This document shows, piece by piece, positions 2,961 to 34,526 of a stretch of 64,000 nucleotides of DNA (the stretch's first letter is position 1; each line of letters starts with the position of its first letter). The DNA is from Patescibacteria group bacterium. GTDB taxonomy: Bacteria > Patescibacteriota > Patescibacteriia > SG8-24 > DYFX01. Location: assembly GCA_041659045.1 (NCBI GenBank), contig JBAZZB010000002.1, forward strand, positions 231,412-295,411, in the 5' to 3' direction. Made by a program: the position numbers and the translations under genes. The notes below the pieces were generated by a model, which worked only from the letters and a program-made list of their open reading frames with translations, did no database searches and was not told the origin of the DNA.

Positions 2961-3032
2961 ACTCACCCCCCTACCCCCTCTCTTTCAGAGAGGGGGTTTT
3001 GGTATCTGGAATCCTCCCCTGAAAGGGGAGGT
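2960..3032. repeat. approximately 75-bp repeat element, copy A (two hairpins: CCCCCTCTCT-TTCA-GAGAGGGGG and CCTCCCCT-GAAA-GGGGAGG)
   Basis: About 90% identical to the reverse complement of 27175-27247. The element starts immediately after the vanW-like stop codon. Confidence 0.6.
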
Positions 3033-3059
3033 GGCCGAAGGCCGGAGGGGTCTTAAACA

Positions 3060-3096
3060 AAAAAACCCTCGACATACGTCGGGGGTCTTTTTTTCT
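3060..3096 (+). terminator. intrinsic terminator (A-run, CCCTCGACATACGTCGGGGG hairpin, T-run)
   Basis: A GC-rich hairpin at 3066-3085 is flanked by a 5' A-run and a 3' T-run. It belongs to the CGAC-NTAN-GTCG hairpin family seen at four loci. Confidence 0.5.
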
Positions 3097-3443
3097 CCAG
3101 TATTTACGGAGTGGTCTGCAGAAAATCGCGCTCAAGAAGGTATCTGATAGAAGCGTTCGAGCCGGAGCCCGAAGTACCCTATGAGCTACCTCCATGCTTG
3201 TCGTGAGCGCGAGTTCCTATAGACCAGTGTGATTGGATCCGAAACGGTCGGGCTGTGACACAGAATGCAGAGCGCGGTGCTCAAGCAACGTCGAACACTA
3301 CCACGGGGTGGAAAACCTGTCAAGGAAATCATTCGGCTGTTTCACGAAATGTTTCATGTTTTATTGACGTTTTTAAGGCGAGCCGGGCATTTTTAGCCTT
3401 ATTTTGCCGTGTTTTGTCTGTCTGAAACCATTGACAAAATAGG

Positions 3444-3472
3444 CTTTTTGTGATATCCTGCTTCACATGAGC
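3444..3472 (+). promoter_or_regulatory. putative promoter (TTGACA-N17-TATCCT) at the island entry, overlapped by an ACAAAA/TTTTGT inverted repeat
   Basis: The sequence reads TTGACAaaataggctttttgtgaTATCCT. The imperfect palindrome ACAAAAtaggctTTTTGT overlaps the spacer and is a possible operator. Confidence 0.4.
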
Positions 3473-3536
3473 CTAGTCGCGGCTTTGCGACGAGCGCTCC
3501 CGTATTGCACGAAACCACCTGACTCAGGAGCACGCC

Positions 3537-3989
3537 GTGTCCAACCGCAAGCACCTTTCCTCGCTCCTCTCCAAGGAGACCAGCAACAAGGCCCTCGACG
3601 AGATCGAGGATCGCCGCATGAACGCCGAGCGCATGCGCGGCAAGTTCTGCGGCAGCAACCCGCCCTCGCGCTACATCGGGCTCTACGATGCCGTGGAGGT
3701 TGACGACGGCCGACTCGACCCGTTCGAGCGCAGCGGCTTCATCTCGGACGATCAGATCCCCGACGACCACGAGCCGTACGTGGAGGAGGACGACGAGGAG
3801 TACCTCGTCAGCGGCGGACTCCCGCCGGCCCCCACCAAGGCGACGCCTCACGGACCGCGCTCCAGCCAGAACTACGCGAAGAGCTACTACGACAGGCTGC
3901 CGCCGCTCAGCTGCGTGACCGTGATCATCAAGGGTCGCGGCCAGGTGCCGTACAAGGAGGTGCGCGAGCAGCTCCGCACGCAGCGCTGA
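3537..3989 (+). CDS. hypothetical protein (GC-rich island gene 1)
   Basis: 150 aa with a GTG start, preceded by CAGGAG. GC3 is high. Confidence 0.5.
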   Translation: MSNRKHLSSLLSKETSNKALDEIEDRRMNAERMRGKFCGSNPPSRYIGLYDAVEVDDGRLDPFERSGFISDDQIPDDHEPYVEEDDEEYLVSGGLPPAPTKATPHGPRSSQNYAKSYYDRLPPLSCVTVIIKGRGQVPYKEVREQLRTQR

Positions 3990-4028
3990 TCCTTCCCCCA
4001 TACATTCCCAGTCCAGTCAGGAGACACC

Positions 4029-4184
4029 ATGTTCGACACCGAAGACAACAGCAAGCTCATCGAGTCCCTCAACACCCTCAACATCACCCTCCAGAAGGTG
4101 CGCATCGACGGCACCTACCTCTTCACCGAGGACGACGTCGAGAACGCCGAGAAGTTCATCCGCACCTTCAACGAGGCGGCGTGA
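4029..4184 (+). CDS. hypothetical small protein (51 aa)
   Basis: The ATG is at 4029 and the TGA at 4182-4184. It translates MFDTEDNSKLIESLNTLNITLQKVRIDGTYLFTEDDVENAEKFIRTFNEAA. It is below the 60-aa cutoff of the ORF track. Confidence 0.4.
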   Translation: MFDTEDNSKLIESLNTLNITLQKVRIDGTYLFTEDDVENAEKFIRTFNEAA

Positions 4185-4351
4185 TGAAGATGATCGTCGC
4201 TTCCACCCAGAAGATCCGGGCAACGGCCTGGTACGAAGACTGCAGCCGCTACTCGGCGCAGTTCAACTGGCCCTTCGGCACCGGCGCCATCGTGGCGATC
4301 CTGCTCTTGATCGCCATCCTGGCGATCACGGGCGTCACCGCCAACCTCTGA
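4184..4351 (+). CDS. hypothetical small membrane protein (55 aa)
   Basis: A TGATG stop-start overlap couples it to the previous ORF. It translates MKMIVASTQKIRATAWYEDCSRYSAQFNWPFGTGAIVAILLLIAILAITGVTANL, with a C-terminal TM helix. Confidence 0.4.
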   Translation: MKMIVASTQKIRATAWYEDCSRYSAQFNWPFGTGAIVAILLLIAILAITGVTANL

Positions 4352-4490
4352 AGCGCTAGCGCTTCACTCAGTCTCGGGGAGAGTGACGACCTCCCCTTCC
4401 GCAATTGGCTCCCGAATCTATCGGGGCCCGATGCCGGAACAACCGGATCGCCAGTCAGAGTCCGCAGTACCGTACAACAAGGAGATCGAG

Positions 4491-5396
4491 ATGCAGCAGA
4501 ACGATTGCTTCAACCCCCGCGAGATCAAGCTCCTCACGTGGAGCCTGCGCGGAACCCCGCTCTACATTCTCATGGTCGTGATCGTGAAGCTCGCGACCGG
4601 CTGCGTCACGATCGAAGGTGACGATCCCGACATCATCGTCGTGAACGAGCCCGACGATCCCGAGCAGCCCGAGCCCCAGCCGGAGCCGACCGAGCCCGAC
4701 CTCGCCCCGCCCGATCCGCAGCCGGAGCCCGAGCCCTGGTGCGGGATGGAGACCGACATCACCGAGACCGACACCCCCGCCTTCGGCGAGGACTGGACGA
4801 ACGGACATCCGTTCGAAGTCGGTGGCGGCGTCGGCGCCATCGACATCGTCAGCGCGCCGGACTTCGTCTATGTGGTACTGAACTACTACGACGAGAGCAA
4901 CCTTCGGCGCCAGTACTGGGTCGTCGGCCAGCAGCTCGGCGTGAGCTACGTCGGTTGCGAGTTCTGGGTCCAGGACGTGGCGACCGACACGGCGAGGGCG
5001 CACATCTTGGTCAGCCGCATCTGTTGGTCCGAAGGCGGCACGGTCAACCACCGTGCCACCACCCTGTCGACGATCGACGTCGAGGAAGGACTGAATGGCA
5101 TCTGGCATCTCTGGGAGCTCGAGCAAGAGCAGGGCTGTCGGAACTACCAGATCGCGGCTGATGGCGCTGAGCTCGTCCTCGGAACGTACAACTGCCAGAC
5201 CGGGGGTCTCAGCGTCCGCCCGCTGCATCGCATGAGCGGCAACATCTGGGTCGGTGAGGAGAACATCCTCGTCGAGTACAACTACCCCTGGGCCTTCCAG
5301 CGCTTCATCGCATTCAACGCGACCGACGGCCTGCTGACCTACGAGCTCGCCGGCCAGCGCGACGTCCAGACCACCCGCTACCGCGCCTGCGAGTAG
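4491..5396 (+). CDS. hypothetical secreted/lipoprotein, paralog 1 (motif CVTIEGDDPDIIVV, Pro/Glu-rich linker, DWTNGH motif)
   Basis: The likely start is MQQNDCF, preceded by AAGGAG with a 7-nt spacer. The N-terminus has a hydrophobic segment ending ..LATGC. It shares the CVT(I/V)EGDDPD(I/T)IVV and DWTNGH motifs with the 6174..7964 ORF. Confidence 0.55.
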   Translation: MQQNDCFNPREIKLLTWSLRGTPLYILMVVIVKLATGCVTIEGDDPDIIVVNEPDDPEQPEPQPEPTEPDLAPPDPQPEPEPWCGMETDITETDTPAFGEDWTNGHPFEVGGGVGAIDIVSAPDFVYVVLNYYDESNLRRQYWVVGQQLGVSYVGCEFWVQDVATDTARAHILVSRICWSEGGTVNHRATTLSTIDVEEGLNGIWHLWELEQEQGCRNYQIAADGAELVLGTYNCQTGGLSVRPLHRMSGNIWVGEENILVEYNYPWAFQRFIAFNATDGLLTYELAGQRDVQTTRYRACE

Positions 5397-5417
5397 CTCG
5401 CTCCTTCTCATGTCCGT

Positions 5418-5515
5418 CCTCTGAGGCGACGCGGCGCGTTCGACCACGAACGACGCCGCGTCGCCTTCAGCCCTTGGGCCACCGAGCAACGTGCTCGGAG
5501 ACCGAGGCCCTGAAG
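5418..5515 (+). repeat. conserved structured intergenic element, copy E1
   Basis: CTGAGGCGACGCGGCG (5421-5436) pairs with CGCCGCGTCGCCTTCAG (5454-5470). A second stem follows, CCCTTGGGCC-ACCGAGCA-ACG-TGCTCGG-AGACCGA-GGCCCTGAAG (5471-5515). CTTCAG is complementary both to the 5' CTGAGG and to the 3' CTGAAG. Confidence 0.5.
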
Positions 5516-5549
5516 CTCCCAGTACTCATCGGATCCAAAAGGACACACC

Positions 5550-6050
5550 GTGCGCAAGCTCTTCACCTCATTCAGCGGTCTCATACTCCTCCTGAGCAAG
5601 GACGAACAGAACATCCAGCAGGAGGACCTCGACTCTGGACTCTTCTACTTCGGGTGCGTGCGCGAACACCTGTTCGGATCACTCGAAGAAGACGGACCCG
5701 AACCTTCCAAGGAGGATCTGCTCTCCAGGAAGTGGTCGGAGCGTATCGCTCAAACGTACTCACAGCGGTTCGTCCGCAGGAAGCAGGCGCTCGCGCGCAT
5801 CCGGGAGACGATCCTCAAGGCGGAGGAGCAGGGCCGCGTCCTCTGGCGCCCCACACCAGCGGATGAGCGCAGCTACAGCGCCTTCAACGCCTTCCTGACC
5901 CAACACGGTCTCACTCCGATCAACCTCGACGACCTGTCGCATGACCGCTACAGCCTGTCGAACGACCGGTTCCACTCCCACGACGCCGCGGCACTGCTCG
6001 CGACGGCGGGTGAGCTGGAGGTCTGGACTCACATGCGCGTCACCGACTGA
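5550..6050 (+). CDS. hypothetical protein (island gene)
   Basis: 166 aa with a GTG start, preceded by AAGGA. Confidence 0.5.
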   Translation: MRKLFTSFSGLILLLSKDEQNIQQEDLDSGLFYFGCVREHLFGSLEEDGPEPSKEDLLSRKWSERIAQTYSQRFVRRKQALARIRETILKAEEQGRVLWRPTPADERSYSAFNAFLTQHGLTPINLDDLSHDRYSLSNDRFHSHDAAALLATAGELEVWTHMRVTD

Positions 6051-6067
6051 CGTCACTCTCGTTCTTT

Positions 6068-6139
6068 CCTCTGGGAGGACATCGCGTCCTCTTCAGCCCT
6101 GGGCCACCGAGCAACGTGCTCGGCGACCGAGGCCCTGAA
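6068..6139 (+). repeat. conserved structured intergenic element, copy E2
   Basis: The stem CTGGGAGGAC..GTCCTCTTCAG is followed by CCCTGGGCCACCGAGCAACGTGCTCGGCGACCGAGGCCCTGAA. The second stem is 48 of 50 identical to E1. Confidence 0.5.
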
Positions 6140-6173
6140 ACGACTGTACGAGACACCACCGCGAGGAGACAGC

Positions 6174-7964
6174 ATGCGCACCTTGACCTTGATCGCTTTC
6201 GTGATTGCCGCTTGTGCGGCCTGCGTCACCGTCGAAGGCGACGACCCCGACACCATCGTCGTGATCGACGACAACGACTGCGACGGCGGCGTTCCGGAGA
6301 CGGACGCCGCGCCGGAGCCCGATGCGTCACCCGACGCTTCGCCCGACGCCGCGCCCGTGCTTCCCTTCCTCCACTTCCTGTTCGGCGGACCGCCGAGCGG
6401 GACGGAGGTCGCGACCGGCGCCCAGAACGAGCCGGTGCTGTGCTACAACATGTCGGCGAACGCTGACATGGAGATCCGGCGCTTCCGCGTCCGACTCAGT
6501 GCCCAGCACGGATTCCTGCTCAACGGTTCCACCCCCCGGTTCGGCGACATCAAGATCGTCGGCGGGAGCGGAAACGTGATCGCGGGTCCGATGGAGCTCG
6601 ATGTCGGTGGCAGCAGCTGGACGCAGACGTTCGTGATGAACGACGTCTTCGGTCTCGCTGCCGGCCAGACGACCGGTGGTTGCATCCAGCTGGATGTGAG
6701 CGCCGACCGAGGGCTGCACAACGAGCACATCGCGGTCGCACTGCTGCCGTTCGAGCTGGGAGACGTCGTCGTCACTGGCGACAACTCCTCGCTCCCGCTC
6801 TCACAGAGCGACATCGGCAGCGGCCTCTCGACCGAGCTCGTGCTCAAGGCTCCCCCTGGCGTCATGACCTACACGCTCGCTCCGGACGACACTGAGTCCG
6901 CGGCAAGCATCGTGGTCGGCAGCTCGACGAACGTCGTGCTCGCCAAGTTCCGCTTCATGGCGCAGAACGAAAGCCTGAAGCTCACGAAGGTGCGCTTCCG
7001 GCTGACCGATGTCGTGTTCGATCCGTCCGTTCCGCACGGCGTGGCGCAAGTCACGCTCTGGGACGGCGCAACGCACGTCGCCGGCCCCGTTCCTCCGACC
7101 GCATCCGGTTTCATCGACTTCTCGGGCTTCACCTTCACCGTCCCCCAGGACGGCACGAAGACGCTGACCGTGAAGGCGACGCTGAACCAGGTCGGTCCGG
7201 CGGGCGCGAACACCGGCATCGATGTCGGCGTCACGCTCTGCTCCGGAAACAACACCCAGACCTGCTGGACCGGCGGCCCCGACCCGATGGAAGACGGAAC
7301 GTACGAAGTGCGCAGCGCGGCGACCAACGCCGTGGTTGACACGATCGGAAATTCCGGCAACATCCAGGGACGCGCGAAGATCCTGCGCAAGACGAAGCCG
7401 ACCGTGACGCTGAACAGTCTGCCGTCGTCGACCCTGTCGAACGGCACGCAGACGATTTCTCGCTTCACGATCACGGCAGATGCTGCGGGGGACGTCTCGC
7501 TGAAGACCATCTTGCTCCAGTCGACACTCGTTGACACCGGCTCCGCGATCCTCTCGATCTCGTCGCCGGCGCTTCGGGAAGTTGGCCAGGGCACGAACCT
7601 GCCGATCGTGCCGTTCGCGGTGATCTGCATCGCCAGCTCGAACTGTGTGACGCAGCTGACCTTCGCAACCGAGGAAGTCATCGCTGCAGGAACGGCCCGA
7701 ACGTACGAACTTCGCGTGAACGTCACCGGAGCGGACGTGACGGGTGAGTCGATCAGCACGAAGCTGCTCGGCGATACGACGCGCGTCACGGGGTCCCTCG
7801 CGGGTTTCGATGGCGAAGCGGTCGGTACCGGTGCCTATCACTTCATCTGGTCGGACAACAGTGCGATCCCGCACAGCGCGGTCGTCGGCGGCTCTGCCGA
7901 CTGGACCAACGGACATCTTGTCCGCGCCCTGCCGACGGACTCGCAGACGCTCGTCCGCAACTGA
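6174..7964 (+). CDS. hypothetical lipoprotein, paralog 2 (lipobox IAAC, repeated beta-rich modules)
   Basis: 596 aa. The signal peptide MRTLTLIAFVIAAC carries a lipobox Cys and the start is preceded by GAGGAG. It contains the same CVTVEGDDPDTIVV and DWTNGH motifs as the 4491..5396 ORF. Internal KxRFRL-type repeats suggest Ig-like beta modules. Confidence 0.6.
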   Translation: MRTLTLIAFVIAACAACVTVEGDDPDTIVVIDDNDCDGGVPETDAAPEPDASPDASPDAAPVLPFLHFLFGGPPSGTEVATGAQNEPVLCYNMSANADMEIRRFRVRLSAQHGFLLNGSTPRFGDIKIVGGSGNVIAGPMELDVGGSSWTQTFVMNDVFGLAAGQTTGGCIQLDVSADRGLHNEHIAVALLPFELGDVVVTGDNSSLPLSQSDIGSGLSTELVLKAPPGVMTYTLAPDDTESAASIVVGSSTNVVLAKFRFMAQNESLKLTKVRFRLTDVVFDPSVPHGVAQVTLWDGATHVAGPVPPTASGFIDFSGFTFTVPQDGTKTLTVKATLNQVGPAGANTGIDVGVTLCSGNNTQTCWTGGPDPMEDGTYEVRSAATNAVVDTIGNSGNIQGRAKILRKTKPTVTLNSLPSSTLSNGTQTISRFTITADAAGDVSLKTILLQSTLVDTGSAILSISSPALREVGQGTNLPIVPFAVICIASSNCVTQLTFATEEVIAAGTARTYELRVNVTGADVTGESISTKLLGDTTRVTGSLAGFDGEAVGTGAYHFIWSDNSAIPHSAVVGGSADWTNGHLVRALPTDSQTLVRN

Positions 7965-7987
7965 CGTTCCTTCACCCTCAACCACAA

Positions 7988-8067
7988 CTCTGTAGCGCTC
8001 GGGGATGTTCGCATCCCCTTCAGCCTCCGACATCCACGCGCTCATGCTGGATGCCGAAGCCCTGAAT
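7988..8067 (+). repeat. conserved structured intergenic element, copy E3
   Basis: The hairpin GGGGATGttcgCATCCCC is followed by TTCAGCC. An inner hairpin CATCCA..TGGATG ends in GCCCTGAAT. The outer CTTCAG/CTGAA pairing is conserved while the inner stem differs from E1 and E2. Confidence 0.45.
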
Positions 8068-8096
8068 CCGACAGTTCTTCAAAAGAGAGGTCCGCC

Positions 8097-8993
8097 GTGA
8101 ACAACTCCCTCGGTCACTTCCACAACCTGCTCCGCACCATCGACGCGCTCGTGCTGAAGATCAGCTCGCCCGGCCACAAGGTCGGCGAGAAGCTCAAGGC
8201 GCTCGCGGCCTACGAGAAGGAGCTCGAGACCATCCCCGTCCACATCAAGACCCAGCGGGAGCTCCTGCTCACCTGCGCCAACCCGGAGGCCGGCCTCGTC
8301 GTCGAAGCGAACAAGCTTCTGCGCCGCATGCGCGACAACTGGGAGGGCTGCCTCCGCACCGACGCGCTGCTCGAGAAGCTGCGCAAGGAGATGTCGCGCA
8401 AGCGGCACATCACCGTCGCGGTGCAGACCATCGAGAGCGAGATCGCGGTGCTCGTCGCTTCCAACAAGGAGCGGCGCGCGACGTACCTCGAGCTCATGGC
8501 GCAGTACGTGGCCCTCGCGCACGTCGATCACCTCAACCGCGAGGCGCTGACGATCCGCACCGAGCTCAAGATCGTCTCCCTGGAGCAGCTGCTCGAGGAG
8601 AAGCTCGGCGAGCTCGACGAGGCGATCGCGTTCGCCGAGGAGGTCGCGATGGATCTCGACCAGCGCGCCAAGCGCCACCAGAAGGCCGTCGAGGCCCGCG
8701 CCAAGACGGAAGCCGAGGCCAAGGCCAAGGCGGAAGCCGAGGCGGTGGCGGCCACCGTCACGATCCCCGGGTTCGAGAACCCCGATGGTTCGCCCATCGA
8801 GTTCGAGAACGTCGAGCTCGACGCGCTCCCGCCGATCACCGTGCACCCCGCGATCGACCCCGATCTCGCGGCGTACATGAAGATCGAGGGGCTCGACCCC
8901 GAGAGCCCCGACGACGTCGCGCTCGCGATGGCGACGGCCGACTCGGGCGATCTCGTGGCCGCGCGCGAGATCTTCAGCAGCTGCACGGTCTGA
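8097..8993 (+). CDS. hypothetical coiled-coil protein
   Basis: 298 aa with a GTG start. The heptad-like charged sequence includes an AEAKAKAEAEA low-complexity stretch. Confidence 0.5.
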   Translation: MNNSLGHFHNLLRTIDALVLKISSPGHKVGEKLKALAAYEKELETIPVHIKTQRELLLTCANPEAGLVVEANKLLRRMRDNWEGCLRTDALLEKLRKEMSRKRHITVAVQTIESEIAVLVASNKERRATYLELMAQYVALAHVDHLNREALTIRTELKIVSLEQLLEEKLGELDEAIAFAEEVAMDLDQRAKRHQKAVEARAKTEAEAKAKAEAEAVAATVTIPGFENPDGSPIEFENVELDALPPITVHPAIDPDLAAYMKIEGLDPESPDDVALAMATADSGDLVAAREIFSSCTV

Positions 8994-9018
8994 CCGCTCA
9001 CAACGTCGCACCTTTCTT

Positions 9019-9124
9019 CCTCAGAGGGGACGCCTCGGCTCGTCGTTAACGAACGACGATGTCGAACGCGTCCCCTTCAGCCCCCGGCCAACAAGCATCA
9101 CGCTTGCCAGTCGGGGCCCTGAAA
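9019..9124 (+). repeat. conserved structured intergenic element, copy E4
   Basis: CTCAGAGGGGACGC..GCGTCCCCTTCAGCC is followed by CCCGGCCAA-CAAGC-ATCAC-GCTTG-CCAGTCGGGGCCCTGAAAAGG. The inner stem CAAGC/GCTTG shows compensatory base changes relative to the E1/E2 stem CGAGCA/TGCTCG. Confidence 0.5.
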
Positions 9125-9144
9125 AGGCCGCCCGTCCACCGTCC

Positions 9145-9603
9145 ATGACAAGACCGGAGTTCATCATGCCCGCACTGCACCTTATCAACACTGGCCGCCT
9201 CATCGACCTCACCGCGCGCACCAAGAAGCCGCCGGCTGATCTCAACATCGACGGCGTCGAAGTGCTCGGTTGGCCGCTCACCGGAGTGGCCGTGACGCTC
9301 AACAACGAACACGTCGGCACCCTGCACGTTCGGATGCGCGCCTTCTACCACTTCCGCGAGCTGTGCCGCAATCGCGGCGACATCGGGCTCGACGAGAAGC
9401 GCACCGACGTCATCCGCGATCTCATCGCCGCGTTCTCCTACGCCTCGCGCATCCGCTGGGAAAGCTCGTACCGCCGAGACAAGTTCGGTAACCTGATCCT
9501 GATCGACCGCGAGGAGAAGATCATGTTCATCGTCGACGAGGAGCGGAAGCTGCTGCTCGCCGTCTTCGACAAGGACGAGGCCGCGAACGCCGACAACCGC
9601 TAG
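9145..9603 (+). CDS. hypothetical protein
   Basis: 152 aa. An alternative start lies at the internal MPALHL. Confidence 0.45.
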   Translation: MTRPEFIMPALHLINTGRLIDLTARTKKPPADLNIDGVEVLGWPLTGVAVTLNNEHVGTLHVRMRAFYHFRELCRNRGDIGLDEKRTDVIRDLIAAFSYASRIRWESSYRRDKFGNLILIDREEKIMFIVDEERKLLLAVFDKDEAANADNR

Positions 9604-9618
9604 CTTCCGGAGACCTTC

Positions 9619-9876
9619 ATGACCGACACCCAGCACGCACGCACGCAGTTGCGCTACAGCCCGGATTTCGACATCTGGATCATCAAGTCGTTCGTCATCG
9701 TCACGCTGAGCGTTCTGCTCATGCTGCTCGTGGCCGGCATCGAAGAGGCCAGTCACACGGTGAGCACCGAGCTCAGCCGCTACGAGCCGACGATCGACAT
9801 GGTCATCCCCGCCAACAACGCCCCGTTCCGCGCGAACGGGCCCAACCTCGCCTTCGCAGAAGGAGTACGTCCATGA
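9619..9876 (+). CDS. hypothetical small membrane protein
   Basis: 85 aa with one TM helix (FVIVTLSVLLMLLVAGI). Confidence 0.45.
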   Translation: MTDTQHARTQLRYSPDFDIWIIKSFVIVTLSVLLMLLVAGIEEASHTVSTELSRYEPTIDMVIPANNAPFRANGPNLAFAEGVRP

Positions 9877-10103
9877 AGCAGCAGGTTCTGGCTCCGGACA
9901 CCATCGACAACACCATCCTCCAGTACCTTCACGAGCTGGACGCCCCGTCCACGCTCGATCCGGACGATCCGATCTTCGCCGGCATCGACCTCGAGCAGCC
10001 GCTCGGCATGGTCGAGGTCCACGGCGAAGACACCGATCGGTTCATGCGGCACCTCGGCGGCCTCCTCACCGAGGAAAGCGAGGTGCCGCAGAACGTCCCG
10101 TAA
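9873..10103 (+). CDS. hypothetical acidic protein
   Basis: 76 aa. The start is preceded by AAGGAG and forms an ATGA overlap with the previous ORF. Confidence 0.45.
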   Translation: MKQQVLAPDTIDNTILQYLHELDAPSTLDPDDPIFAGIDLEQPLGMVEVHGEDTDRFMRHLGGLLTEESEVPQNVP

Positions 10104-10119
10104 CTCAGTCAGAACGAAA

Positions 10120-10153
10120 GAGCCAGGCTCCATCATGGAACCTGGCTCGTATT
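10120..10153. terminator. bidirectional intrinsic terminator between the island and clpP
   Basis: The hairpin GAGCCAGGctccatcatggaaCCTGGCTC is followed by GTATTTTATTT. It sits between the convergent 9873..10103 ORF and the end of clpP. Confidence 0.6.
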
Positions 10154-10771
10154 TTATTTCTTGATGATCTTGTCGATCAGGCCGTACTTCCTGGCTTCTT
10201 CCGCCGTCATGAAGTTATCGCGGTCGGTATCCTTCTCGATTTTGGCGAAGGATTGTCCGGTGAAGTTCGCGAGATGGCGGTTGAGATCGTCCTTCATTTT
10301 CAGAATGCGCTCGGCGCGAATCTTAATGTCGGACGCCTGACCTTCGGCGCCGCCCAAGACCTGGTGAATCATGATCTCGGAGTTCGGAAGAGCGAAGCGC
10401 TTGCCCTTGGCGCCGGCGGCAAAGAGGAAGGCACCCATCGAAGCAGCCATGCCGACGCAGATCGTCGAGACGTCCGGCTTGATGATGTTCATCGTATCCA
10501 TGATCGCCATACCCGCCGTGACAGAACCGCCCGGCGAATTGATGTAGAGCTTGATGTCGCGATCCTTGTCTTGGCTTTCAAGGAACAGAAGCTGCGCGAT
10601 GACGATGTTCGCGATGTTGTCATCGATACCATCGCCGAGAAAAATAATTCGGTCGATCAAGAGGCGCGAATAAATATCGTACGCGCGCTCCCCCATCGGC
10701 GTCTTTTCGATCACCGTCGGGATAAGATAGTTGCTCGGCGAAATTGAATTGATCGTGTAGGGATTTTGCAT
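10154..10771 (-). CDS. clpP: ATP-dependent Clp protease proteolytic subunit
   Basis: 205 aa. The protein matches ClpP along its whole length, including the canonical catalytic regions around GMAASMGAF and MIHQVLGG. Confidence 0.95.
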
Positions 10772-16577: not shown

Positions 16578-16585
16578 AAGAAAAA

Positions 16586-16615
16586 GGCCCCGATCACATC
16601 GGGGTCTTTGCGTTT
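16586..16615. terminator. bidirectional terminator (GGCCCCGATcacATCGGGGtC plus TCTTTGCGTTT)
   Basis: The hairpin is at 16586-16606 and serves smc on the plus strand and the Cys-rich gene on the minus strand. The module ..PYR-stop-AAACGCAAAGA-hairpin recurs at 17077 and 18581. Confidence 0.6.
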
Positions 16616-17021
16616 AGCGGTACGGATACGCCGGGAGGCCGGTGCCGCTTTGATGCGCGAGCTTGAGCTTCAAGAGCGGCATGGCATCGTCGAAAGAACC
16701 CAGGTGCGGCAACTCCACGCCGAGAAGCTTGGCATCCGGTTGCGCGGAGAGCTGCCCGCAGCCGTCGCAGACATACGCCGGCGAATACCAGGAACAGCCA
16801 CGCGCGTCAGCAACGTCCTTGACCAGCTCCCACAGCGTGAGAAGTCGGCGTCCACAGCATCGATACTCAACGTGCGCCGAGCTTTCCGTGGCGACAGCCA
16901 CCAAGCCGGCATTGCTGGCGCGGGCTTCGTCGACAGACACGTGATCGAGCTCCAACACGCGCAGCCCGGACGCTTCCAGCATGCGGGCAATTCTTGTCTC
17001 TGACATAAAGACCTCCTTCAT
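16614..17021 (-). CDS. hypothetical Cys-rich protein (CxxC..CDGCG zinc-ribbon-like), C-terminal ..AYPYR
   Basis: 135 aa containing the motifs YRCCGRR...YVCDGCGQL. Its 3' end is conserved with the 18609..19223 ORF and with the fragment at 17108..17221. Confidence 0.5.
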   Translation of the reverse strand: MKEVFMSETRIARMLEASGLRVLELDHVSVDEARASNAGLVAVATESSAHVEYRCCGRRLLTLWELVKDVADARGCSWYSPAYVCDGCGQLSAQPDAKLLGVELPHLGSFDDAMPLLKLKLAHQSGTGLPAYPYR

Positions 17022-17076
17022 TGAGCCGACGTTAGCATTGGCTGCTGAGCTTGTCCAAAAAAATTCGGAAATAAAA

Positions 17077-17103
17077 CGACGGCCCGAGAGGGTCGTCTTT
17101 GCG
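17077..17103 (-). terminator. terminator hairpin CGACGGCCCgagaGGGTCGTC (minus-strand sense followed by TTTTATTT)
   Basis: It is a paralogous copy of the terminator module. It sits downstream of the gene fragment and not of a full gene. Confidence 0.5.
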
Positions 17104-17107
17104 TTTA

Positions 17108-17221
17108 GCGATACGGGTCCACCCGAAGATCGATGCCGCTACGATGCGCACGCTTGAAGAGCAGACGTACGGTATCGCTGTCGTCCTTCCAGCCGGCGAC
17201 GGCTTTGAGGAACTCGCGGGC
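17108..17221 (-). pseudogene. decayed 3' fragment of a Cys-rich family gene (..AGWKDDSDTVRLLFKRAHRSGIDLRVDPYR-stop)
   Basis: The 38-codon frame ends in DPYR plus a stop and is followed by the same terminator module. It is bounded upstream by an in-frame stop at 17222-17224. It shows about 70% nucleotide identity to the 3' end of the 16614..17021 gene. Confidence 0.4.
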
Positions 17222-18561: not shown

Positions 18562-18580
18562 GCAGCCGTGGAAAATAAAA

Positions 18581-18606
18581 CGACGACCTCGCGGGGTCGT
18601 CTTTGC
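18581..18606 (-). terminator. terminator hairpin CGACGACCtcgcGGGGTCGTC plus TTTGCGTTC
   Basis: This is the third copy of the ..PYR-stop plus hairpin module. Confidence 0.5.
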
Positions 18607-18608
18607 GT

Positions 18609-19223
18609 TCAGCGGTATGGCTCATCGTCAATCGTCTCGCCGAGCCGATTCTTCACCGAAAGCAGTTGCGAACGTAGCGTGTCGCGGCGATGATCTATGT
18701 CCGCGACTTGCTTCTCCAAGCGCTTCTTTCGTTCCGCAAGTGGTTCTTCCGATTGATCCGATCCGCGCTTCATTCGGGCCAGGAAGTCGGAGAGGTCGAC
18801 AGCCCCTTGCCAGGCGAAGCGGATACGCATGGGCGCATCCCATTCATCGCTATGCAAGCGGTGACAATGCGCGCAGACGTTTCCGAAATCGACAAGGGTT
18901 TTGCCATCCATGAAATCTTCGGTTCTGCACAATCGATACACGGTTCCACAACAGGCACCGCAATTGATTCCCGAACGCGCCACGAAAGCCACGTCGTCAG
19001 GCTTCAAGCGATGCACGTTTGGCTGCCGGTTCGGAAACCAGATGAAGCCGACCTTTTCGAGCTGTCTCACGACATCCAGTGCGGGATCCGCCGCGCTGAC
19101 GAGACGGAGCTGAAGCCTCTTGCGCCGAAGCGCGTACTGTCCGGAGACAAACGCGATCAGCAGAGAGATAACACTAACTGCGAGCGTTTCCATCAGAACC
19201 TCCCCTGTAATGGAACGGCGCAA
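18609..19223 (-). CDS. hypothetical membrane-anchored Cys-rich protein with a C-terminal coiled coil, ending ..DEPYR
   Basis: 204 aa with an N-terminal TM helix. The Cys cluster CGACCG...CAHCH is followed by a charged coiled-coil region. Confidence 0.5.
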   Translation of the reverse strand: MRRSITGEVLMETLAVSVISLLIAFVSGQYALRRKRLQLRLVSAADPALDVVRQLEKVGFIWFPNRQPNVHRLKPDDVAFVARSGINCGACCGTVYRLCRTEDFMDGKTLVDFGNVCAHCHRLHSDEWDAPMRIRFAWQGAVDLSDFLARMKRGSDQSEEPLAERKKRLEKQVADIDHRRDTLRSQLLSVKNRLGETIDDEPYR

Positions 19224-19257
19224 TGTATCAGGGGGCGTGCCTTACGTCAATATAAAA

Positions 19258-19285
19258 GGACGACCCGTGAAGGTCGTCTGTGTAC
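19258..19285 (-). terminator. terminator hairpin GACGACCcgtgaaGGTCGTC
   Basis: It belongs to the same GACGACC stem family and sits downstream of the 19305..20060 ORF. Confidence 0.5.
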
Positions 19286-19304
19286 TGACAGGGCTGTGAT
19301 CCGA

Positions 19305-27174: not shown

Positions 27175-27247
27175 ACCTCCCCTTTCAGGGGAGGATTTTA
27201 ATTACCAAAACCCCCTCTCTGAAAGAGAGGGGGTAGGGGGTGAGTCA
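27175..27247. repeat. approximately 75-bp repeat element, copy B (inverted relative to copy A)
   Basis: Its reverse complement reads GACTCACCCCCTACCCCCTCTCTTTCAGAGAGGGGGTTTTGGTAattaaAATCCTCCCCTGAAAGGGGAGG. It abuts the stop codon of the minus-strand 27245..28159 ORF and lies between convergent genes. Confidence 0.6.
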
Positions 27248-34370: not shown

Positions 34371-34447
34371 GTCTCCGTAGCTCAATTGGATAGAGCGGCG
34401 GGCTTCTATCCCGAAGGTTGCAGGTTCGATTCCTGCCGGGGACACCA
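34371..34447 (+). tRNA. tRNA-Arg (anticodon TCT)
   Basis: The acceptor GTCTCCG/CGGGGAC, D arm GCTC..GAGC, anticodon loop CTTCTAT (TCT at 34405-34407), T arm GCAGG-TTCGATT-CCTGC and an encoded CCA all fit a tRNA. There is one G-A mismatch at the base of the anticodon stem. Confidence 0.8.
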
Positions 34448-34451
34448 GCAT

Positions 34452-34526
34452 GGCGGCCATCGTTCAGTGGTAGGACAGTGGATTGTGGTTCCACGAATGA
34501 GGGTTCGATTCCCTCTGGCCGCCCCA
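34452..34526 (+). tRNA. tRNA-His (anticodon GTG) with an encoded G-1
   Basis: An extra 5' G pairs with the C73 discriminator. The acceptor is GCGGCCA/TGGCCGC, the anticodon loop is TTGTGGT, the T arm is GAGGG-TTCGATT-CCCTC, and CCA is encoded. Confidence 0.85.

Follow-up and report, generated by a model that had tools for sequence, protein, structure and literature searches.

A repeated two-hairpin intercistronic element in a variable, predicted lipoprotein operon of Patescibacteria

A stretch of 64,000 nucleotides from a Patescibacteria group bacterium (assembly GCA_041659045.1, contig JBAZZB010000002.1, positions 231,412 to 295,411; hereafter the window, in whose numbering positions are given) carries, between the genes of a predicted operon, five copies of an intercistronic element made of two abutting hairpins, hairpin 1 (HP1) and hairpin 2 (HP2). 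One copy, E0, is diverged, and four, E1 to E4, are canonical. An earlier description, made from the letters of the DNA and here called the sequence-only reading, had recognized E1 to E4, which are borne out, and had overlooked E0 (4376-4439). The structure of the element is under selection. The element is apparently previously undescribed and known from a narrow lineage of Patescibacteria.

The operon and its genes

The elements lie in an island (about 3100-10150) that is bounded by a VanW-domain gene (1044-2960) and a convergent clpP gene (10154-10771) and that consists of ten co-oriented genes, g1 to g10. The only sigma-70-like promoter of the island is taken, from its sequence, as the putative start of a single operon holding all element copies, and a two-way terminator hairpin at the border with clpP as the putative end of the transcription unit. 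A scan of the island found no promoter- or terminator-like site between the two. The features of the operon are as follows.

3431-3459, + strand: sole sigma-70-like promoter of the island, TTGACA-17-TATCCT, with 10/12 matches and a TG extension
3537-4351, + strand: g1 to g3
4491-5396, + strand: g4, predicted lipoprotein, paralogue of g6, flanked by elements
5550-6050, + strand: g5, flanked by elements
6174-7964, + strand: g6, predicted lipoprotein, paralogue of g4, flanked by elements
8097-8993, + strand: g7, flanked by elements
9166-9603, + strand: g8, element-flanked cistron and first gene of the conserved tail
up to 10103, + strand: g9 and g10
10120-10148, no strand assigned: two-way terminator hairpin from the terminator scan, at the boundary between the operon and the convergent clpP

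None of the ten operon proteins has a match in Pfam, NCBIfam or PHROG. The products of g4 and g6 have a lipoprotein-like N-terminus in common, with a stretch of 82% identity (4601-4657 and 6221-6277; CVT[IV]EGDDPD.IVV), and lipobox-like motifs suggest that both are lipoproteins. The family of g8, designated H, numbers 18 representatives in 1.84 billion proteins and is devoid of an informative domain; an AlphaFold model of g8 built on a three-sequence alignment reached a pLDDT (predicted local distance difference test) of 38 and was unusable. The G+C content of the window is about 57%, and the stretch of about 4000-10000 that holds the elements has 63-65%, as against 55-60% in the DNA flanking the operon. 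Despite this higher value, the operon is no recent insertion, since its synteny in the VanW-clpP interval is maintained in all relatives.

Architecture of the element

All elements follow the same order: the stop codon of the upstream gene, a CU-rich tract of 20-40 nt, HP1, HP2, and a leader of 27-52 nt with a Shine-Dalgarno (SD) sequence. The CU-rich tract, which is poor in G, is always 5′ of HP1 and begins at the stop codon. HP1 is GC-rich, with the consensus GGGGACG-CCUCG-CGUCCCC, and its 3′ arm ends in ...CCCC immediately before UUCAG. RNA folding of each intergenic region leaves no spacer between the hairpins. HP2, an irregular hairpin of 48-51 nt with about 20 bp, or about two helical turns, starts from a base of (C)UUCAG/CUGAA(G), which is followed by an invariant asymmetric internal loop with CC on the 5′ side and GCC on the 3′ side. 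The nucleotides of this loop are the only conserved unpaired residues of the element. Above it the hairpin continues with a helix of 7 positions, mismatched at its centre, and then with a C.A juxtaposition that is conserved, a helix of 3-7 bp and a terminal loop that varies. The copies in the window are located as follows; bit scores are those of HP2 under the covariance model R1 (see below).

4376-4439, + strand: E0, between g3 and g4; HP1 GGGGAG..CTCCCC (4376-4396), HP2 at 4396-4439
5397-5420, + strand: left flank of E1, a CU-rich, G-poor tract directly 3′ of the g4 stop codon
5421-5470, + strand: HP1 of E1; core 5424-5436 / 5454-5466, inner hairpin CGTTCG-ACCA-CGAACG
5465-5515, + strand: HP2 of E1; CUUCAG/CUGAAG, CC/GCC internal loop, CUUGG/CCGAG, CCGAGCA-ACG-UGCUCGG; 61.7 bits
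6071-6140, + strand: E2; HP1 CTG-GGAGGAC..GTCCTC-T-CAG (6071-6096), HP2 at 6091-6139; 63.8 bits
8001-8066, + strand: E3; HP1 GGGGATG-TTCG-CATCCCC (8001-8018), HP2 at 8018-8066; 61.0 bits
9025-9123, + strand: E4; HP1 AGGGGACGC..GCGTCCCCT (9025-9076), HP2 at 9075-9123; 59.9 bits
6051-6070, 7965-8000 and 8994-9024: equivalent CU-rich tracts of the other copies

The window has four instances of the composite pattern CTTCAGCC-N30-36-CCCTGAA (5465, 6091, 8018, 9075), as against 0.00 expected from 100 shuffles. Both stems that the sequence-only reading had drawn in E1 are present. The pairing of CTGAGGCGACGCGGCG (5421-5436) with CGCCGCGTCGCCTTCAG (5454-5470) comprises 13 perfectly paired nucleotides (5424-5436 / 5454-5466) and a CTG/CAG extension across one G.T, and the second stem, CTTCAG...GGCC (5465-5488) against ...GGCCCTGAAG (5492-5515), is a 24-nt inverted repeat with 75% complementarity. 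The outermost CTG/CAG pairs of E1 HP1 overlap the CTTCAG that also makes the base of HP2. HP2 of E2 is 95% identical to that of E1.

The loop of HP1 is often CCUCG and accepts a whole inner hairpin of the type CGTCGTT-NNNN-AACGACG; in E4, for example, HP1 holds the inserted inner hairpin TCGTCGTT-AACG-AACGACGA. This optional hairpin recurs in the window (9040-9059 and 5437-5452) and at related loci (denoted by L-numbers), namely in the L008 copies at 5513 and 6566 and in the L001 copy at 5746. A short contig of the Logan collection (L042, 1-60) carries HP2 and the HP1 3′ arm ACGTCCCC, with unrelated sequence in place of the 5′ arm; it reflects a breakpoint within HP1 or else a chimeric assembly.

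Selection on structure

The sequence-only reading had taken the differing inner stems of E4 (CAAGC/GCTTG) and E1 (CCGAGCA/TGCTCGG) as a sign of selection on structure. The difference is real, and an enlarged alignment contains covariation in HP2 as well as in HP1. Six of the ten upper-stem pairs of HP2 show changes on both sides, and double changes fill 26 cells, compared with 11.8 +/- 2.6 in column shuffles, a value reached by 0/500 shuffles. When the partner is slid by 1-3 columns, pairing in HP2 drops from 90% to 14-56%. The five base pairs UUCAG/CUGAA are invariant among canonical copies, and this invariance is not an artefact of discovery, since most loci were found via their proteins rather than via the motif. 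In E0 the base helix reads UUCCG/CGGAA instead of UUCAG/CUGAA (CTTCCG ... CCGGAA at the ends in the DNA), a compensatory change from A-U to C-G. Near-identical copies of E0 are found in L001, L008, L013 and L019, and across five genomes its HP2 differs only in the loop.

The arms of HP1 were misaligned in the MAFFT alignment (A6), and the pairs of HP1 were counted from base-anchored sequences. In 16 distinct short versions, the six basal pairs are Watson-Crick without exception (96/96 cells). G-C, A-U and U-A alternate at three positions, as exemplified by GGGGACG/CGUCCCC, GGGGAUG/CAUCCCC and GGGAACG/CGUUCCC and by GGAGGAC/GUCCUC as against GGUGGAC/GUCCAC.

Relatives and distribution

Relatives of the locus were gathered from contigs bearing homologues of g6, g7 or g8 and by pattern scans of genomes and metagenomes. 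The homologues are very rare, with 13 proteins for g6, three for g8 and two for g7 among 5.8 billion clusters, and a metagenome retrieval anchored on g8 gave no match. Nearest to the window are metagenome-assembled genomes that bear the label Patescibacteria group or Minisyncoccota, among them a complete genome of 1.17 Mb (CP129476.1); a Logan contig, L043, is 99.99% identical to the window over 2967-10457. Altogether, about 35 copies of the element are present in 15 distinct syntenic loci, and every copy is intercistronic in the VanW-clpP operon. The flanking coding DNA of related loci is only 72-87% identical to that of the window.

A covariance model built on HP2 (R1) was scanned over the window and the related loci, 168-170 kb in all. 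It yielded 26-27 sense matches of 47-73 bits, all of them intercistronic in this operon, and none outside the operon in these 168-170 kb, which include the rest of the 64-kb window. A pattern scan of 596 Gb of genomes found true matches only in contigs of the Patescibacteria/Minisyncoccota type. Within CP129476.1, pattern matches were confined to this operon, the strictness of the pattern limiting the sensitivity of the scan. Searches against Rfam gave no match in the elements, either at the gathering score or at E<=10. A phage or plasmid origin was rejected: megablast of 4300-9300 against phages and a distant blastn search of E3 against plasmids and phages produced no match, and the pattern scan of viral contigs produced 0 matches.

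The relatives also bear on the genes of the operon. A third lipoprotein paralogue of 413 amino acids (K413) is present in L003, L019, L024 and L037. Pfam searches of the relatives' operon proteins gave nothing except a Sigma70_r2 domain (E=4.6e-20) in the g7-like gene of L005 (11971-13095), where it follows the common N-terminal 190 residues; a remnant of the g7 C-terminal coding sequence sits 3′ of the stop codon of that gene. Five tandem T4SS_pilin (PF18895) genes at 1-1922 of L005, about 7 kb 5′ of the operon, are consistent with a Patescibacteria host.

Modularity of the operon

With gene families designated by letters, the operon of each locus opens with a conserved head (A/B/C or P90) and closes with a conserved tail (H, I, J), between which lies a variable middle of 1-4 genes. 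The genes of this middle come from the lipoprotein paralogues D, F and K413 and from E and G. Each of its junctions has an element, and the rest of the operon has none; elements are present before the non-paralogous genes E, G and H as well. Gene order and content vary, the middle reading F-G in the window and G-F in L003; F is absent from CP129476.1 and G from L014.

The CU tract and HP1 tend to go with the upstream gene (after F, the type is E3 in every case), and the 3′ half of HP2 and the leader tend to go with the downstream gene; before G, all HP2 copies except that of L001 read CGAA[G/U]C. The two halves nevertheless reassort. Left halves of the E2 and E3 types each occur with right halves of the Hb and Hc types, and the four-gamete test accordingly fails. 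In CP129476.1, the element between G and H consists of the left half of copy L003c and the right half of copy L003d, joined within CTTCAGCCTC, and is by its sequence what a precise loss of the F module would leave. Moreover, HP2 is homogenized within genomes: the two L001 copies are identical, as E1 and E2 nearly are (95%) despite unrelated flanking genes. The copies are mutually similar and can therefore act as hinges at which homologous exchange swaps, deletes or homogenizes gene modules. These patterns show that the elements are recombination hinges, the exchange being site-specific or else plain homologous exchange over the 10-15 nt of highest conservation.

A possible role in messenger RNA

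All copies reside in one transcription unit and point in the same direction as the genes, and they are thus certainly present in polycistronic mRNA. It is tentatively proposed that the element serves as mRNA punctuation for processing, stability or translation and, in addition, as a recombination hinge. In such a scheme, HP2, with its internal loop and the invariant junction, would be recognized by a structure- or sequence-specific factor, the most obvious candidate being an endonuclease of the RNase III type that cuts double-stranded RNA. Whether or not cleavage occurs, the two hairpins would shield the cistrons on either side against exonucleases and determine how efficiently the next cistron is translated. 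The expression of neighbouring genes would thereby be uncoupled, and recombination between copies would be a by-product that renders the middle of the operon modular.

This view is supported by the restriction of the repeat to this operon and the compensatory changes in both hairpins, by the presence of one promoter and one terminator with no U-tract after the hairpins, and by the position of the elements, each of which is preceded by a stop codon and followed by a leader with an SD. In the RNase III sites of bacteriophage T7 (R0.3, R0.5, R1.1 and others), irregular intercistronic hairpins of about 20 bp display a conserved asymmetric loop, and the hairpin left over after cutting can stabilize the mRNA. 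HP2 has the structural format of such a site, namely 5 bp, a 2x3 loop, 7 positions, C.A, 3-7 bp and a terminal loop. The likeness extends to the arrangement, in that similar intercistronic elements are repeated in one polycistronic transcript. In contrast to the T7 sites, the element possesses a second, strictly paired and abutting hairpin and an invariant junction and base, and it resides on a Patescibacteria chromosome; it is a candidate site only. We infer that the element acts as part of the mRNA, in processing, stability or translation.

Several observations weigh against this proposal. No RNA-binding or nuclease domain was found in the operon proteins, and pairing between the CU tract and the SD is not above that of shuffled flanks over the 27 copies compared. 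The strand that folds is a further difficulty. Pairs from the minimum free energy (MFE) folds of sense and antisense strands were combined for 28 HP2 sequences, G.U being pairable only in the sense RNA and A.C only in the antisense strand, where it becomes G.U. True RNA helices normally contain far more G.U than A.C. The helices of HP2 comprise 483 Watson-Crick pairs, 25 G.U and 37 A.C juxtapositions, G.U and A.C being of roughly similar frequency. About 20 of the A.C cases belong to one conserved C.A position, and by the author's count there are about 12 independent G.U events and about 10 A.C events. Summed over 25 sequences, the folding energy of HP2 amounts to -672 kcal/mol for the antisense and -550 kcal/mol for the sense strand. 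The clear G.U excess that is the signature of a sense-strand RNA is therefore not displayed by HP2, although sense-only G.U pairs exist, e.g., in UCUGGUG/CGCCGGA and in the E1 HP1 extension. HP1 gives no information on the strand, since all of its pairs are Watson-Crick. Some of the HP2 mismatches may have a function as breaks in a long helix.

A possible folded DNA site

Among the alternatives to mRNA punctuation, the one that survives best, though an unlikely one, is that the element constitutes a folded DNA site resembling attC in a cassette system other than the integron; a recombination site of this kind had also been suggested by the sequence-only reading. One strand, probably the G-rich bottom strand, would fold, a recombinase would exchange strands in CTTCAG, and the cassette would consist of HP2, leader, gene, CU tract and HP1. 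Such a site would account for the restriction of the elements to the flanks of variable genes (D, F, K413, E, G), with none between A, B and C or between H, I and J, for the gene content and order that differ between genomes, and for the CP129476.1 junction within CTTCAGCCTC together with the reassorted left and right halves. It also agrees with A.C juxtapositions being as common as G.U pairs and with the better folding of the bottom strand; GC skew is negative along the whole window, and the bottom strand may be the lagging-strand template.

The folded bottom strand of attC is the substrate of recombination (PMC8876359). The invariant base, variable top and asymmetric internal loop of the element, with its possible extrahelical bases, resemble attC. 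HP2 is, like attC, a palindrome that is imperfect, conserved at its base and variable, with covariation, at its centre; it contains unpaired or asymmetric bases and folds better as the bottom strand, but it is one of two hairpins. As with attC, the copies stand in the same orientation between promoterless co-oriented genes whose content varies among strains. The intercistronic stem-loops of integron cassettes also modulate translation of the downstream gene (PMC8876359), which, together with the use of attC as a folded strand, provides a precedent for a dual role in DNA and RNA. By analogy, then, the element looks functionally most like the T7 RNase III sites and formally like attC.

However, the differences from attC are substantial. 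As the sequence-only reading had stated, the integron boxes RYYYAAC/GTTRRRY are absent, the base being CTTCAG ... CTGAA(G) in all 27 canonical copies, and neither IntI nor attI accompanies the elements. Two hairpins take the place of one, and exchange apparently takes place between the two, not at a single hairpin's 3′ end. In all relatives the locus has kept its synteny and been inherited vertically. Within +/-10 kb of the operon, the annotation of every locus is free of recombinase, integrase, transposase and HUH genes, and no such domain occurs in the operon proteins; the neighbouring genes found in at least eight loci encode HSP20, VanW, ClpP, DHH/DHHA1 and SMC_N, no recombinase family being listed. 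Breakpoints at one and the same spot would also be expected from homologous exchange confined to the 10-15 best-conserved nt. The E2-type left half follows four gene families (E, K413, D, G), and since left halves are thus not tied to one upstream gene, gene conversion fits better than cassette movement. Matches in viral contigs, plasmids and phages are lacking as well. It is improbable that the elements are sites of an unknown cassette system, either integrase-less or served by a recombinase acting in trans, that would use two-hairpin single-stranded DNA and exchange in CTTCAG for the insertion, deletion and reordering of lipoprotein modules, and that would be analogous to integrons though unrelated to them in sequence and architecture. 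HP1 as a tyrosine-recombinase core site (a 7-6-7 palindrome) was rejected, given that its arms covary and that the 'spacer' takes hairpin insertions of 25-30 nt.

Translational coupling and absence of function as doubtful alternatives

Translational coupling is a further alternative to mRNA punctuation, albeit one of low probability. The CU tract would pair with the next SD across the hairpins in a three-way junction, and the downstream cistron would be translated only once a ribosome terminating on the upstream one had opened this helix. The MFE folds of E2, E3, E1 and E0 indeed close the element with a helix between CU tract and SD, and CU-rich tracts resembling an anti-SD (CUUUCCUC, CCUUCUC) occur in most copies. 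On the other hand, the mean number of paired bases is 3.8, compared with 3.1 in composition-matched shuffled flanks, and the observed value is the higher one in only 12/27 copies. No covariation could be shown for this helix, and any C/U-rich tract pairs with GGAG.

It is equally doubtful that the element has no dedicated function, being a spacer remnant duplicated along with lipoprotein paralogues, or a product of spread akin to that of MITEs (miniature inverted-repeat transposable elements), with copies kept alike by gene conversion. D, F and K413 are indeed paralogous, and HP2 is homogenized within genomes. This notion is contradicted by the compensatory changes in both hairpins, by a base and junction that are invariant in all canonical copies although flanking coding DNA is 72-87% identical, and by the confinement of E0 HP2 variation to the loop across five genomes. 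In addition, elements precede the non-paralogous E, G and H, copies outside the operon are lacking in the sequence scanned with the covariance model, and neither target duplications nor inverted repeats at the termini can be seen.

Repetitive extragenic palindromes and bacterial interspersed mosaic elements (REP/BIME) and Correia elements act both in DNA, through recombination and protein binding, and in mRNA, as stabilizers and, in the case of Correia elements, as RNase III targets. Like the REP/BIME sequences of proteobacteria and the Correia elements of Neisseria, the element is a GC-rich, imperfect and intercistronic palindrome. Those families, however, number tens to hundreds of copies genome-wide, bear GTAG or terminal inverted repeats and have a REP-associated tyrosine transposase (RAYT) or another transposase, whereas the element has 1-5 copies in one operon. 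Tests of the aligned copies for REP or MITE features detected no GTAG head, terminal inverted repeats or target-site duplication, and the covariance model gave no dispersed copy in 168 kb.

The proposed two-state switch

The sequence-only reading had proposed a two-state RNA switch in which CUUCAG alternates between an upstream CUGRGG and a downstream CUGAAG and thereby controls the next gene as an attenuator or riboswitch would. Such a mechanism is most improbable. For 30 distinct copies, the fold with HP1 and HP2 (UUCAG/CUGAA) was compared with the best fold in which UCAG is barred from the UUCAG/CUGAA helix, being paired upstream or left unpaired. The two-hairpin fold is the MFE structure, or lies <=0.5 kcal/mol from it, in 27/30 copies. 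The alternative comes within 2 kcal/mol in only 12/30, chiefly those with HP1 of the E1, E2 or E4 type, and costs 2.7-6.4 kcal/mol elsewhere (including E0 and L037), so that more than half of the copies have no near-isoenergetic alternative.

The underlying three-site logic, CTGRGG..CTTCAG..CTGAAR, applies to E1 and E2 and fails in E3 (CTGTAG) and E4 (CTCAGAGGGG); the upstream site of E3 homologues drifts to CCGTAG and CTGCCG, and the upstream partner is absent altogether from most E3-type copies (window, L001, L014) and from L026 and L027. In favour of a switch, the gap between conformers is 1.4 kcal/mol in E1 and 0.5 in E4, and it ranges from -0.3 to 1.6 kcal/mol in the E2-type copies of other genomes, as against 4.2 in E2 of the window. 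Furthermore, all E2-type HP1s, including the compensatory variant GGUGGAC/GUCCAC, keep the CUG...CAG extension.

The ability of CUUCAG to pair in two ways in E1-, E2- and E4-type copies recalls attenuators and riboswitch platforms. The element differs from these in that alternative pairing is not family-wide and that a U-tract, an aptamer-like core and an Rfam match are missing. No U-tract terminator follows the hairpins, HP1 being followed by UUCAG and HP2 by A/C-rich sequence, and the terminator scan found terminators only at the ends of the operon and none in the elements. There is neither a leader peptide nor a conserved core resembling a ligand pocket, and both hairpins have tops of varying sequence and length. 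The UUCCG/CGGAA change of E0 preserves the downstream helix only and thus supports the HP2 base helix, not the alternative pairing. The fold energies, the E0 change, the missing U-tract and the lack of a conserved unpaired core consequently all speak against an attenuator- or riboswitch-like mechanism. Where competition is present, it looks like branch migration of 3-5 bp at the foot of two stacked hairpins.

Three further candidates were rejected: a promoter of the extracytoplasmic function (ECF) type in the element, where the spacing of the GGAAC and CGT motifs is not that of a promoter; a target hairpin of a diversity-generating retroelement (DGR), the window being without a template/variable repeat pair and without a reverse transcriptase; and a hammerhead-like ribozyme, for which there was no Rfam ribozyme match.

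Other features of the window

A family of 51-nt repeats has four copies within 2.7 kb (16578-16628, 17069-17119, 18573-18623, 19250-19300), each consisting of a hairpin followed by the conserved GTCTTTGCGTTTAGCG; read on the minus strand, the conserved tail precedes a terminator with a T-run. Near-identical palindromic, terminator-like hairpins (ACCCCCTCTCT...AGAGAGGGGGT) are located 24 kb apart at 2973-2997 and 27210-27234. Genes for tRNA-Arg(TCT) and tRNA-His(GTG) adjoin at 34371-34526.

Significance for Patescibacteria

The element belongs with the intercistronic hairpin repeats, a known class, and is strongly constrained and restricted to one variable lipoprotein operon; its distribution is narrow and its function a proposed one, which limits the immediate impact. 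Patescibacteria, also called the candidate phyla radiation (CPR), live as tiny episymbionts; their genomes are reduced, and very few regulatory RNAs or families of repeats are known from them. In this setting, the element marks exactly those genes that come and go between strains in a fast-changing operon of predicted surface lipoproteins. If the proposal of mRNA punctuation is true, the element would offer a way to tune single cistrons without extra promoters; if a folded DNA site is involved, it would represent a new cassette-exchange mechanism that varies surface proteins. Either way, the element constitutes a candidate new family of RNA or DNA motifs that comes with an alignment, covariation support and a working covariance model.

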